Positions 1,453 to 49,308 of a DNA stretch of 64,000 nt are shown here, in pieces (the first letter of the stretch is position 1; each line of letters begins with the position of its first letter). Source of the stretch: Candidatus Iainarchaeum sp. GTDB taxonomy: Archaea > Iainarchaeota > Iainarchaeia > Iainarchaeales > UBA10191. The notes under the pieces were generated by a model. It was given only the letters and a program-made list of their open reading frames with translations. It searched no databases and was not told the DNA's origin. The stretch spans positions 1 to 64,000 of the forward strand of contig JAUSFL010000023.1 in assembly GCA_030649735.1 (NCBI GenBank), written 5' to 3'. The position numbers and the translations under genes are program-made.

Positions 1453-1522
1453 AAACACTAAAATTAGGACAACTAAGAATAAACAACCCAACCAAAAAAT
1501 ACTAATTAAAAAAGCACAAAAT

Positions 1523-1597
1523 AGCGCGGTAGGGCAGCCAGGAGTGCCCGTCGGGCTCATAACCCGGAGGTCGGAGGTTCAAATCCTTCCCGCGCTA
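1523..1597 (+). tRNA. Initiator tRNA-Met (CAT)
   Basis: AGCGCGG...CCGCGCT-A with A1-U72 pair and GGG-CTCATAA-CCC anticodon arm, both initiator hallmarks. Confidence 0.96.
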
Positions 1598-1736
1598 AAA
1601 AAACTATAAAAACTACTCCTAATCTTATTTAAAGTAAAAAAAAGCAATTTGAGCTAAAATAAAGCAATAAAACAACCTAGATTGTGAATTTTTAACAAAA
1701 ACCACTAATTCTATATAATAAATTAATGAGTATTAT

Positions 1737-1750
1737 AGTTAGGCACTACA
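1737..1750 (+). repeat. AGTTAGGCACTACA motif copy 1
   Basis: Exact 14-mer in the AT-rich intergenic region. Confidence 0.9.
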
Positions 1751-1919: not shown

Positions 1920-1933
1920 AGTTAGGCACTACA
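1920..1933 (+). repeat. AGTTAGGCACTACA motif copy 2
   Basis: Exact 14-mer; 16 bp identical to copy 1 (ATAGTTAGGCACTACA). Confidence 0.9.
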
Positions 1934-1984
1934 ACCACACAAAATACTAAGCCTCAAAACAACACTAATAAAACAATACTAGTA

Positions 1985-2047
1985 ATTACTATAATGACGA
2001 GTAATGAGCGTAAACTATTTAAGTAAGTACAATCATTACTATAATGA
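1985..2047 (+). promoter_or_regulatory. Putative operator: 13-bp direct repeat ATTACTATAATGA (1985, 2035); second copy lies in the palindrome TCATTA-CTA-TAATGA
   Basis: Seen directly; the copies flank a TATA-like TATTTAAG and overlap the first ATG of the wHTH gene. Confidence 0.45.
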
Positions 2048-2466
2048 GATCAAAAATGGGCTTTTTAGATAAAATTTTAAATATTTTTCGAAAAAAAGAG
2101 TTAGGCACTACAAAAATAGAAAAAACAATATATGAAATCCAAAAAGAAGAATTTGAAGAAATCCATAGTGTTTGGGATTACTTAAAATTTGTTGAAAACA
2201 CGCAGGCATTCCACCTTACTAGCGTAATTGGGTTTGAAGAATGGATTACAATGGGTGAAATAAAACGAAGAATTAAGGAATTATTTACTGTAGAATATGA
2301 GAATGAAAGAAGCCTTTACCCATACATAAAAACCCTAGTAGATTGCGGCCTTTTTGAAGTTTCAAATGTCGGTGGAAAAAGAAAATGGAGAAGAAAAGAG
2401 CTTTTGATTATTGTGAAAAAGAAAAAAAAAGAGACTGAGCAAATCAGAGAAATCAGGGAGAATTAG
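2044..2466 (+). CDS. Winged-helix DNA-binding protein with N-terminal amphipathic helix
   Basis: WITMGEIKRRIKELF...SLYPYIKTLVDCGLFEVSNVGGKRKWR resembles a wHTH with wing; MGFLDKILNIFRKK from the alternative ATG 2056. Confidence 0.7.
   Translation: MRSKMGFLDKILNIFRKKELGTTKIEKTIYEIQKEEFEEIHSVWDYLKFVENTQAFHLTSVIGFEEWITMGEIKRRIKELFTVEYENERSLYPYIKTLVDCGLFEVSNVGGKRKWRRKELLIIVKKKKKETEQIREIREN
2099..2112 (+). repeat. AGTTAGGCACTACA motif copy 3 (inside wHTH CDS, encodes ELGTT)
   Basis: Exact 14-mer. Confidence 0.9.
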
Positions 2467-2502: not shown

Positions 2503-3099
2503 TCAAAGATTGCGTAATGCATTATAATTTTTGTTAAAGTTCATTAATCTTTCAGATTTGGAATAATTCTGTTTAAACCAGGGGAAAGAAATGACTTTTT
2601 GCGCTGTTTCAAGCAAAACCCGCCTGTAATTTTCGTCAATTTTTTGGTTTTGCTGGATTAAATTAAGCAAGTTTTTTATTTCCTCTTCAATCTTTTCATG
2701 GCTTTCAGAAGTTGAAAGAATGAAAGTCCTGTCAATTAATTCCTCTAAAGACTTTACAACCAAATGGTCTTCAACGTCTTTTTCATTAAGGTAATAGACT
2801 GCTTTCCAATCCCCTTTAGTTTGCCATTTATGGGTTGGGTTATTTCCTGTAAGAAAAAAATTTTTTAAATTTGAAAAAATTTCCGGGGGAATGATAACAC
2901 AATTTTTGCCTTGTTTAATATATGGTACTTTTGAAAGTATTCCATTTCTATGATATGCGTAAGTTTTGCCATTGCTTTTAGTCACTCTTTGAGTGTACCC
3001 ATAAATTGCGCGGAATAGTTTTTGATAAGTATATGTTGAATGGCTCATTGTTTCTGGAATTATGAATTTATATTGAATAAAATAGCTCTTTTCTGCCAC
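2503..3099 (-). CDS. Hypothetical protein, possible Cas2-like/ferredoxin-fold N-terminal domain
   Basis: Long ORF; GTG 3099 follows an SD-like GGGTGTG (ORF-track start 3144); pattern FIQYKF...QKLFRAIYGY...GILSKVPYIKQGKNCVIIP. Confidence 0.6.
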   Translation of the reverse strand: MAEKSYFIQYKFIIPETMSHSTYTYQKLFRAIYGYTQRVTKSNGKTYAYHRNGILSKVPYIKQGKNCVIIPPEIFSNLKNFFLTGNNPTHKWQTKGDWKAVYYLNEKDVEDHLVVKSLEELIDRTFILSTSESHEKIEEEIKNLLNLIQQNQKIDENYRRVLLETAQKVISFPWFKQNYSKSERLMNFNKNYNALRNL

Positions 3100-3229: not shown

Positions 3230-3541
3230 TTATTTTCTTCTCTGATATCTATATTGTGGAGCTGGTTGTCTAGCTGGCGCTTCTTCTTCCTCAATTTCTA
3301 AGGCTTTAGAAGGGCAAGTTATTACAATATCTTTTACAGATTTTACAGTCCTATACGGAATGCTTTTTTCGCTGATTATTTTTTTGGCCTCTTGCTTGCT
3401 TCGCACTCTTAAAGGCTCTGTTGTGATAGTTTCAATTCTTCCTTTTTCAAGGTTTATTACCAAATCGAAGACTTTTCCCTTATATTCAGCATTATCTGTG
3501 TAGATATCCATTCCAAAAAGCTTTGAGATTCTTGCTGTCAT
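3230..3541 (-). CDS. PRC-barrel domain protein (CdpB2-like cell-division protein)
   Basis: SKLFGMDIYTDNAEYKGKVFDLVINLEKGRI...IPYRTVKSVKDIVI PRC-barrel signature. Confidence 0.85.
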   Translation of the reverse strand: MTARISKLFGMDIYTDNAEYKGKVFDLVINLEKGRIETITTEPLRVRSKQEAKKIISEKSIPYRTVKSVKDIVITCPSKALEIEEEEAPARQPAPQYRYQRRK

Positions 3542-3742
3542 TAAATTCACCCCATTAATATTGATATTAGGTTTTGAAAACCATTATACTGAAGTCAAGA
3601 AACTATTTAAATCTTACTAATTTTTTTCAAAACCAGTATTTTTCAATAATAGTGGAACTAAACCCACCCCAAAACTACATAATTATTGCTTTGTTTCATT
3701 AATTCTCTCTTGTCCTAATATCGTGTGCTTTTTATCCTAATT

Positions 3743-3756
3743 TGTAGTGCCTAACT
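3743..3756 (-). repeat. AGTTAGGCACTACA motif copy 4 (contains the xerA TAG stop)
   Basis: Plus strand TGTAGTGCCTAACT. Confidence 0.9.
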
Positions 3757-4725
3757 TTGCTCTTTTATCGCTTCTTTTTCAATTATTTTCTTTTTTTGCA
3801 TTGTGTCAAAAGGGCTGACTACTTTTTTCAGCTCGTCTGTTGTGACTTGGGTGTAAATTTGGGTTGTGCTTAGGTTTGAATGGCCTAGCAGTTCCTGGAT
3901 TTTTCGGATATTTTCTCCGCTTTCCAGTAAATGCGTTGCGAAGCTGTGGCGTAGTTTGTGTGGCGTGATGTCTTTTGTTATTTTTGCCTTTGCTGCTGAT
4001 TCTTTGATCATTCTTTCGATTGTGTCAGTGCTTATTGGGGTTGCGTTTTTTTTGCTGAATACAAATGCGCTTTTGTTTTTTTTCTTTTTTAAGTATTTTT
4101 TTATTTCACTAATCCATTGTTTTGAAAGGATTATTATCCTGTCTTTGTTTCCTTTCCCGCCTTTTACGCGGGCTATTCCTTCTTCTAGTTCCAGGTCTTC
4201 GGTTTTTAGCTTGCTGGCTTCTGAAACCCTGCAGCCAGTGCTGTAAAGGAATTCTAAGATTAGCCTGTTGCGTCCTGCTTTTGTTGCTTTGAAGAGGAGT
4301 TTTAATTCTTCTTTTGTCAGTGTTATTGGAAGTTTTTTGGCTTTTTTTGGGGTTTTTATTTCTTCAATTATTTTTAAGTGCAGCAGCGTGTGGTAAAAGT
4401 ATTTTAGCGCTGAGAGCGCTAGTGCTATTGTTGAATTGCTTGTTTGCCTTTTTTCTTTCATTTCTGCCATGAATGAGATTATGTCTTCTCTTTGCGCTTC
4501 TTTGGCTGGTTTTTTGAAGAATTGCAAAAACATTTCAACATATAATTCATACATGGTCAAGGTTTTTTGTGAATAGCCGGCGACTAGCAGTTCTTGCCTG
4601 AATTTTTTTACAATCGCTTGGTTTTCTTCGCTTAATTCTGGCTTTGCGGTTTTTCTTTTTTCAAATTCCGAATTTGTAGTGCCTAATTCACCAATCGTAG
4701 TGCCTAACTCTTCTATTGTCCCCAT
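3751..4725 (-). CDS. xerA: XerA-like tyrosine recombinase
   Basis: SAM-like N-domain; catalytic R (TGCRVSE), K (GKGNKDR), HKLRHSFATHLL, LLGHS, TTQIYT. Confidence 0.9.
   Translation of the reverse strand: MGTIEELGTTIGELGTTNSEFEKRKTAKPELSEENQAIVKKFRQELLVAGYSQKTLTMYELYVEMFLQFFKKPAKEAQREDIISFMAEMKEKRQTSNSTIALALSALKYFYHTLLHLKIIEEIKTPKKAKKLPITLTKEELKLLFKATKAGRNRLILEFLYSTGCRVSEASKLKTEDLELEEGIARVKGGKGNKDRIIILSKQWISEIKKYLKKKKNKSAFVFSKKNATPISTDTIERMIKESAAKAKITKDITPHKLRHSFATHLLESGENIRKIQELLGHSNLSTTQIYTQVTTDELKKVVSPFDTMQKKKIIEKEAIKEQS
4675..4709 (-). repeat. Motif copies 5 and 6 (AATTAGGCACTACA 4675-4688; AGTTAGGCACTACG 4696-4709)
   Basis: One mismatch each, 21 bp apart; encode ELGTT twice in the XerA N-terminus. 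Confidence 0.9.
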
Positions 4726-49294: not shown

Positions 49295-49308
49295 AGTTAG
49301 GCACTACA
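49295..49308 (+). repeat. AGTTAGGCACTACA motif copy 7 (distal)
   Basis: Exact 14-mer immediately after the gltX stop. Confidence 0.85.

Follow-up and report, generated by a model that had tools for sequence, protein, structure and literature searches.

The closest described counterparts of the protein considered here are SepF and Noc. SepF is the archaeal membrane anchor of FtsZ, and a peptide of the M. smithii SepF (MGFTDALKRSLGF) was reported to bind vesicles (PMC8178401); Noc of Bacillus subtilis has been described as linking an amphipathic helix at its N-terminus to a domain that binds DNA, with scattered sites that recruit DNA to the membrane (PMC4331003, PMC8429893). The gene with which we are concerned lies in a stretch of 64,000 nucleotides (hereafter the window) forming the beginning of contig C49 (JAUSFL010000023.1) in the genome of a Candidatus Iainarchaeum (G000; 1.28 Mb, 51 contigs, 92.7% complete), and encodes a small protein in which a predicted amphipathic N-terminal helix is followed by a winged helix. 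The reading that we prefer, albeit tentatively and with a probability of about 0.45, is that this product associates peripherally with the membrane and, as a winged-helix dimer, acts on the region upstream of its own gene. To our knowledge, chromosome organisation and segregation in DPANN archaea, as well as their link to division, are largely unknown, and we know of few candidates for a DNA-membrane tether that have been proposed for archaea.

An open reading frame (ORF) spanning positions 2044 to 2466 of the forward strand is present, as had been proposed in an earlier sequence-only reading of the window. Translated from ATG 2044 it yields 140 residues, whereas the ATG at 2056, favored in that reading, yields 136 residues with the N-terminus MGFLDKILNIFRKK (in longer form MGFLDKILNIFRKKELGTT); the latter is the likely start, because the nearest homologs begin with MGF or MGL. 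A word-indexed search returned 308 candidate proteins, 302 of which are homologous at E ≤ 0.01 and none of which carries a Pfam domain; their source names point mostly to Diapherotrites and in some cases to Micrarchaeota or an unclassified archaeon. That this is a narrow family with good conservation is indicated by an exhaustive phmmer search of 1.84 billion cluster representatives, which gave only 39 matches at E ≤ 0.001, 36 of these at ≤ 1e-10. Among 41 related genomes, 37 have the gene, each with one match, and all 20 high-quality genomes are included; no paralog of the 136-residue protein was found in G000. The alignment contains 29 invariant residues, and helix 3 and the wing are invariant throughout the order. 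The gene order aTrm56, TFE, tRNA-Met, a spacer of ~450 nt, the gene itself, ORF213, PRC-barrel protein and XerA is likewise kept across families. The product is thus a member of a previously unnamed, lineage-restricted family that is single-copy and syntenic across Iainarchaeia (Diapherotrites), and both the family and its combination of a membrane-type helix with a winged helix are new. The neighborhood is a core chromosomal block and not an integrated element: a mobile element at the tRNA-Met was considered and ruled out, since the entire block keeps its synteny throughout the order and its recombinase is identified as XerA (NF040815, 273.5 bits; cut-off 220).

The AlphaFold2 model, built on an alignment of 33 sequences, has a mean predicted local distance difference test score (pLDDT) of 77.4 and consists of an N-terminal helix, a stretch disordered at residues 13–30 (pLDDT < 50) and a core whose blocks reach 89–96. 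Within the first 20 residues the best 11-residue hydrophobic moment is 0.81, a value attained by 0.7% of 1158 N-termini of the same genome, taken from crude gene calls, and by 1.3% of 2000 shuffles of residues 2–20. The family median is 0.67 (146 members), which is reached by 5% of the N-termini of G000, and the amphipathic pattern is kept even in the most divergent representatives, such as MGLFNKIKNLFKRK and MVIKKLVRSFLGVFKSI. The distance to the core, measured by the position of a W-D-Y landmark in the 146 homologs, ranges from 32 to 126 residues. Residues 1–14 are a candidate membrane-targeting helix that may bind membranes. The N-terminus resembles both the M. smithii SepF peptide and the N-terminus of the SepF encoded in G000 itself (MGFFDKVFSKK, read from an internal ATG taken as the start).

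In the core, a strand (residues 34–38) precedes three helices and a β-hairpin wing (strands 100–105 and 108–113), followed by a further strand at 117–121; three helices and then a wing are what constitutes a winged helix-turn-helix. A Foldseek search of the PDB returned no match at E ≤ 0.001, its top rows being Fur, ZitR, PerR, RosR, BlaI, PadR and linker histone (H1), with a best E of 6.2e-3. In the VIA comparison, winged helices make up all 50 matches listed, the best being the Fur DNA-binding domain (Z 9.6, root-mean-square deviation 2.3 Å over 73 residues), and Z ≥ 8 is reached by 67 of 1000 chains; Z values of 7–8 are common in VIA, and therefore only the fold, and no family, is claimed. 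The sequence-only reading, which had been made without database searches, had placed a winged helix behind a SepF-like amphipathic N-terminus, had suggested structure prediction and Foldseek as checks, and had regarded an N-terminal helix not conserved in homologs as fatal to its proposal: the fold and the amphipathic pattern are both borne out, and the helix is conserved. As to families, Pfam gave for the window protein a single sub-threshold match, to DUF2247, and the ESM Atlas contributed only unnamed clusters, at 0.90, and DUF2551, at 0.88. A scan of G000 with PF03551 (PadR) pointed to four other places, the gene under study not being among them. The PadR likeness of the family is taken as a lead only.

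Pairing of the core is supported, although not demonstrated, by modeling. Homodimer predictions for residues 31–136, from which the N-terminal helix was left out, gave an interface score (ipSAE) of 0.70 in three of three runs, the best control being 0.44; among proteins of known structure, the mark applied is attained by 20 of the 30 that were solved as pairs and by 1 of the 23 that were solved as single chains. Between runs, at least 93% of the contacts are shared, with a partner pLDDT of at least 82, and the predicted interface comprises residues 42–55, 89–99 and 116–120.

The upstream region was compared at 30 orthologous loci. From the 37 gene-bearing genomes, G024 was left out owing to a contig end and G040 because the anchor pattern failed, whereas G005, G007, G015, G020 and G036 are not among the 30 loci. 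In 19 of these loci the first Met in the open frame was taken as the start. The proximal 130 nt contain at least three GTAAT/ATTAC half-sites in 27 loci, and an exact GTAATTAC precedes the start in 26, there being eight in the whole of the 1.28-Mb genome. An unbiased count of k-mers in the first 11 loci yielded AGTAAT as the top 6-mer (11/11) and GTAATTAC in 9/11, compared with shuffles in which the best 7-mer occurred in 5.1 loci on average and in 8 at most. These boxes flank or overlap a conserved TATA-like TTTAAGTAA; operator-like repeats, such as an autoregulator would be expected to have, are thus conserved on the gene's own promoter. No other promoters of G000 are singled out by clusters of half-sites, so that a GTAATTAC-type regulon was rejected, and no boxes were found upstream of xerA in nine other genomes.

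Farther upstream, between −480 and −110, a second type of repeat is found. CACTnAC occurs there 43 times in sense and once in antisense orientation, against 5.2 ± 2.2 expected from first-order Markov simulations (maximum 14 in 1000); omission of the two genus-g1 loci leaves 35 against 4.7 expected, and the longer CACTNACTTT is seen 13 times against 0.12 expected. At least one distal copy is present in 18 of the 30 loci. The repeat is represented in the spacer of another family by a CACTCACTTTT array, and the local form in G030, with eight occurrences genome-wide and five for the control, is not enriched, three of the eight lying in the spacer. A known RNA in the spacer was also considered; the Rfam search at E ≤ 1 gave only two tRNAs and chance rows.

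Taken together, these features suggest that the protein is built as a peripheral membrane anchor, with a SepF-like helix (residues 3–13), a variable disordered linker and a winged-helix core predicted to dimerise, and that it most likely binds DNA upstream of its own gene, in a region conserved throughout the order. The palindromic GTAATTAC/AGTAAT boxes over the promoter would suggest autoregulation, and the sense-strand CACTnAC(TTT) direct repeats farther upstream are possibly targets too. Binding at these elements would make the protein a membrane-associated regulator, or a tether, of a locus situated 47–140 kb from cdc6.

Several observations weigh against this reading. The SepF N-terminus of G000 has a moment of only 0.48, so that the moment alone does not define a membrane-targeting sequence. 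No sequence link to any DNA-binding family was found above threshold: the window protein has no PadR (PF03551) match at E ≤ 1, the gathering cut-off of this family being 27 bits; the PadR matches found in 28 of 33 relatives are all sub-threshold (best E 0.0071); hhalign of the family alignment against the two-sequence profile of two G000 PadRs gave a probability of 0.6% over 20 columns around LYP; and a profile search of the PDB returned nothing significant (best E 0.31). The predicted dimer interface takes in helix 3 with the invariant P89, Y90, K92, T93, D96 and G98. Helix 3 of a winged helix is usually the element that reads DNA and, if the model is right, canonical reading of the major groove would be blocked. 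Furthermore, the core is not basic (isoelectric point 7.0), the basic part being confined to the wing and tail (10.5). As to the upstream elements, GTAATTAC overlaps the TATA-like element, so that promoter sequence could contribute to the box signal, fewer than three half-sites are present in 3 of the 30 loci, and 12 of the 30 have no distal repeat; finally, the related genomes are kin and do not represent independent samples.

The locus also carries a 12-mer, GTTAGGCACTAC, two copies of which precede the gene while a third lies within its coding sequence, an arrangement that the sequence-only reading had described correctly. In the window there are nine matches with up to two mismatches, against 1.11 expected, a number reached in 0 of 100 shuffles; among the further copies are those on the reverse strand inside or at the end of the XerA gene (3744, 4697 and, with one mismatch, 4676) and one at 49296. 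In the whole of G000, exact 12-mers number 32, and 45 copies are found with up to one mismatch as opposed to 7 for a reversed control; the exact 11-mer TTAGGCACTAC occurs 40 times. Referred to crude gene calls (greedy longest ORFs, 1310 genes, 91% coverage), 24 of these 40 copies are intergenic and 16 genic, the latter comprising 14 in sense and 2 in antisense orientation. The same LGTT reading frame is used in 13 of the 14 sense copies, and in four called genes, XerA included, a motif copy supplies the TAG stop. The genes concerned are ordinary ones, such as those for GatE, a Dph2-like protein, RNase HII and a decarboxylase (by sequence reading). The extended consensus is approximately aARAG-TTAGGCACTAC-R-n-TTT; neither upstream similarity among the copies nor an inverted partner was found. 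The start of the 12-mer, GTTAGGC, fits the core-site pattern of integrons, GTTRRRY, but readings of the motif as part of a diversity-generating retroelement, a CRISPR or an integron attC site were dismissed, as the copies have no upstream similarity and no inverted partner.

The exact 12-mer is present in 6 of 41 related genomes (32 copies in G000, 39 in G001, and 11, 8, 3 and 1 in the others), namely all four of family f1, which comprise G000 and its congener G001 as well as G002 and G003 of another genus, and two others at low count, and is absent from the remaining 35 searched; helix 2, helix 3 and the wing of the protein show no family-specific change. At five of five orthologous genic sites of G000 and G001 the motif is identical in 11 of 11 positions amid 30-nt flanks in which only 3 to 24 positions are identical, which suggests constraint at the nucleotide level. 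The G001 decarboxylase gene has an inserted, in-frame 45-nt unit made of the motif and about 34 nt containing GCGGAGCA, the G001 Dph2-like gene an insert of about 45 residues with two more copies, and other loci of this genome have motif arrays spaced by about 22, 44–45 and 70–87 nt. Copies within coding sequences occupy permissive places, as in the disordered linker of the protein under study and in an N-terminal extension of XerA. The latter extension, of ~40 residues (4620–4725, reverse strand) and ahead of the NF040815 match that begins at residue 41, contains two copies 21 nt apart (4697–4708 and 4676–4687; ELGTTIGELGTT), a third copy (3744–3755) supplying the TAG stop, and differs in length and sequence in other genomes examined. 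The copy in the coding sequence of the winged-helix protein, being in a tolerant linker, does not show self-recognition. To judge from these data, the 12-mer behaves like a dispersed, polar, family-restricted repeat expanding under sequence constraint. A replication-polar motif of the Chi or KOPS type was ruled out, since the orientation flips within 2 kb, tracking the genes, and a full-text literature search for TTAGGCACTAC found nothing related.

The repeat is also borne by a virus-like contig. A scan of IMG/VR for AGTTAGGCACTACA returned 123 loci, nearly all of them single matches as by chance, and one enriched contig, IMGVR_UViG_3300009320_000030 (45.5 kb, with direct terminal repeats), which has 19 exact 11-mers on one strand, none on the other and one reversed control. 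Twelve of the 19 copies fall within called ORFs, invariably in the LGTT frame; a single ORF of 1374 residues holds seven, outside its two Pfam domains (PAPS-reductase, DNA-ligase). Behind some copies there is a hairpin or an immediately adjoining ATG. The contig, which resembles a head-tailed virus, has weak TerL and portal matches beside an integrase, two ParB-like proteins, a LAGLIDADG endonuclease and a methylase; no homolog of the 136-residue protein was found on it. Its integrase resembles three copies in G000 at 23–25% identity (C44:51306-52562, C37:38447-39340 and C47:51921-52763), of which that on C44 ends in a motif copy. The motif being common to this contig and to family f1, a host link to the latter is suggested, and the 12-mer is best described as a gene-co-oriented signal, on DNA or RNA, shared by a host family and a virus.

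The sequence-only reading had taken the protein as the cognate binder of the 12-mer, able to tether DNA to the membrane, and this part of it is not supported as stated. In its full form, in which a specific GTTAGGCACTAC binder would hold some 40 copies on the chromosome at the membrane, in the manner of Noc and its sites, we regard it as unlikely. It draws strength from the motif preceding the gene in both genomes of the genus (two copies in G000, six in G001), each with a further copy in the coding sequence, from the identity of the motif at orthologous genic sites, which suggests constraint, and from the N-terminal helix and winged helix, which are real by models and moment; moreover, the spacer repeats share the motif core CACTnAC (18 of 30 loci; 43 against 5.2 expected) and thereby keep binding of the 12-mer by this protein weakly alive. 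It does not, however, account for the presence of the 12-mer in 6 of 41 genomes as opposed to 37 of 41 for a protein with invariant helix 3 and wing, nor for the orthologs of G002 and G003, which have no exact copy nearby despite 11 and 8 copies elsewhere in these genomes. The copies are, furthermore, dispersed, track gene orientation and one reading frame, change in number by 45-nt units between sister genomes and, in the coding sequence, fall in a disordered linker, whereas the virus contig has 19 on one strand and no homolog of the protein. The family motif (GG-CACTAC-A-n-TTT) looks rather like one lineage's form of an old repeat, at first bound to the locus and propagated afterwards; GTTAGGCACTAC would then be the genus- and family-level version of the distal repeat, dispersed over the chromosome and also virus-borne. 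The old spacer repeats keep the link between repeat and gene alive, but this link is to the locus, tRNA-Met included, and does not identify the binder. Other binders of the 12-mer were considered as well: ParB was rejected, there being no ParB_N (PF02195) match in the 92.7% of G000 that is covered, and TrmB-like proteins, two of which have the motif 35 and 50 nt upstream, were set aside as a family found in 31 of 41 genomes, unlike the motif. An extension of the same idea, to which we attach a still lower likelihood, is an archaeal counterpart of the Noc/ParB-type tethers: a membrane-anchored dimer might bind the repeat array beside its own gene, near cdc6, and keep this part of the chromosome at the membrane in the service of segregation or of the control of division, the site having been multiplied in one family and copied by a virus to use or to evade the system.

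Two further explanations were considered. According to one, the protein would be a membrane adaptor for a protein partner, like SepF, its winged helix serving dimerisation and partner binding instead of sequence-specific DNA recognition, and the partner likely being a division or segregation factor. The architecture indeed parallels that described for SepF (PMC8178401), the length of the linker varies widely (32 to 126 residues), the core is neutral, the predicted dimer employs the invariant residues of helix 3, and the gene stays near those for XerA and for a PRC-barrel protein, a class reported to act in archaeal division (bioRxiv 10.1101/2023.03.28.534520). Nevertheless, we consider it rather improbable: every one of the closest structures is a winged helix that binds DNA, wing and tail have a basic character, something has to bind the conserved palindromic boxes at the gene's promoter, and the convergent orientation relative to the PRC-barrel and XerA genes means that no operon is shared. 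The other explanation, which appears doubtful to about the same degree as the specific GTTAGGCACTAC binder, is that of an ordinary cytoplasmic, autoregulating winged-helix repressor whose N-terminal helix would serve dimerisation or regulation and would not anchor it in the membrane. GTAATTAC boxes overlapping the TATA-like element in 26 of 30 loci and sub-threshold PadR matches in 28 of 33 members are compatible with it, amphipathic helices also form protein contacts, and the dimer was predicted without the helix; yet a helix placed at the extreme N-terminus and followed by a very variable, disordered linker fits a tethered anchor better than a packed element, and its sequence is close to those of SepF membrane-targeting sequences. 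Our tentative preference remains with a winged-helix dimer at the membrane periphery that would act upstream of its own gene.

Table 1. Features of the locus (positions are those of the window)
Feature	Positions	Strand	Basis or remark
Coding sequence of the 136-residue protein	2056..2466	+	TAG stop 2464-2466; alternative in-frame ATG 2044 adds MRSK
Residues 1-14, N-terminal amphipathic helix, candidate membrane-targeting sequence	2056..2097	+	AlphaFold2 helix 3-13, moment 0.81, homolog pattern
Residues 15-33, disordered linker of variable length, holding the in-gene motif copy (ELGTT)	2098..2154	+	pLDDT, homolog spacing
Residues 34-121, winged-helix core: H1 50-57, H2 66-77, H3 88-96, wing hairpin 100-113	2155..2418	+	Models
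Motif copy GTTAGGCACTAC, distal spacer	1738..1749	+	Exact match
Motif copy GTTAGGCACTAC, distal spacer	1921..1932	+	Exact match
Motif copy GTTAGGCACTAC in the linker, codons 15-19 (ELGTT)	2100..2111	+	Exact match
Promoter-proximal boxes AGTAATTACT (1981-1990), AGTAATGA (2000-2007) and TCATTACT (2033-2040)	1981..2040	+	
TATA-like TTTAAGTAA, flanked by the promoter-proximal boxes	2018-2026	+	
tRNA-Met, conserved upstream neighbor; bounds the ~450-nt spacer	1522..1598	+	
ORF213, conserved convergent neighbor, no known family	2503..3099	-	Likely start GTG 3099 by orthologs (198 residues)
PRC-barrel protein, 106 residues, syntenic	3230..3550	-	
XerA tyrosine recombinase	3751..4725	-	NF040815 match

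The gene is convergent to those of ORF213, the PRC-barrel protein and XerA, which excludes co-transcription with them. ORF213, of about 198 residues by its orthologs, is conserved order-wide (52–77% identity) and has no Pfam or NCBIfam match; its model is confident (pLDDT 87.7, predicted template modeling score 0.83) and combines a ferredoxin-like half with a helical bundle, for which no clear structural match was found (best E 0.08 in Foldseek, best Z 7.5 VIA-wide). On the other side of the spacer, ARAGORN places a tRNA-Met in 7 of 10 loci, the remaining three having at the same position no call or another tRNA; in two of these three the sequence is readable as tRNA-Met with an inserted stretch. 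This upstream tRNA-Met apparently carries an insert, likely an intron, in G001 (contig C102), G002 and G003, where ARAGORN missed it or called tRNA-Tyr or tRNA-Leu.

The distance of 47–140 kb to cdc6 refers to six genomes. Division-type genes of G000 comprise SepF, three FtsZ/tubulin genes and two small PRC-barrel genes. Beyond the window, at about 100 kb from the gene under study, SepF lies directly beside cdc6/orc1 (C49:102481-104193).

What the locus offers is a candidate conserved throughout an order and made of separable parts, namely a 14-residue helix, a linker and a 90-residue core, together with two defined DNA elements. If the protein only regulates itself, it would represent a new family of small regulators; should it tether a division factor or DNA to the membrane, the gap mentioned at the outset would be filled. 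Independently of the protein, the polar 12-mer found in both host and virus represents a type of dispersed repeat hitherto undescribed for these genomes.

Compared with known systems, the protein resembles SepF, as described (PMC8178401), in having a membrane-type helix, a flexible linker and a core here predicted to be dimeric, and the N-termini are alike: MGFLDKIL in the protein under study, MGFFDKVF in the SepF of the same genome and MGFTDALK in that of M. smithii. Its core, however, is a winged helix and not the SepF fold, no PF04472 match is found, and the genome has its own SepF as a separate gene (C49:102481-102696). With Noc it has in common a predicted N-terminal amphipathic helix joined to a domain of DNA-binding type, but Noc is described as a ParB-family CTPase with 16-bp sites, whereas the present protein is a single winged helix for which Pfam gave no match to ParB_N or to the ParB HTH. 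The PadR-like regulators (PF03551; LmrR, PDB 4ejo and 5dym) it resembles in fold (VIA Z 8.2–8.7), in the helix 3 pattern S-LYP-x-(I/L)-K-x-L-x-x-x-G-L and in the basic G-G-K-R-K wing; it differs from them by a match below the Pfam cut-off and by the additional membrane-type helix at its N-terminus. Finally, in iteron plasmid Rep genes and in WhiP of Sulfolobus, direct repeats and an inverted-repeat operator on the promoter accompany a winged-helix gene. The same layout, from repeats through inverted-repeat boxes to a winged-helix gene, is found at this locus, with the difference that the protein is here a single small winged helix and that cdc6 is 47–140 kb away.

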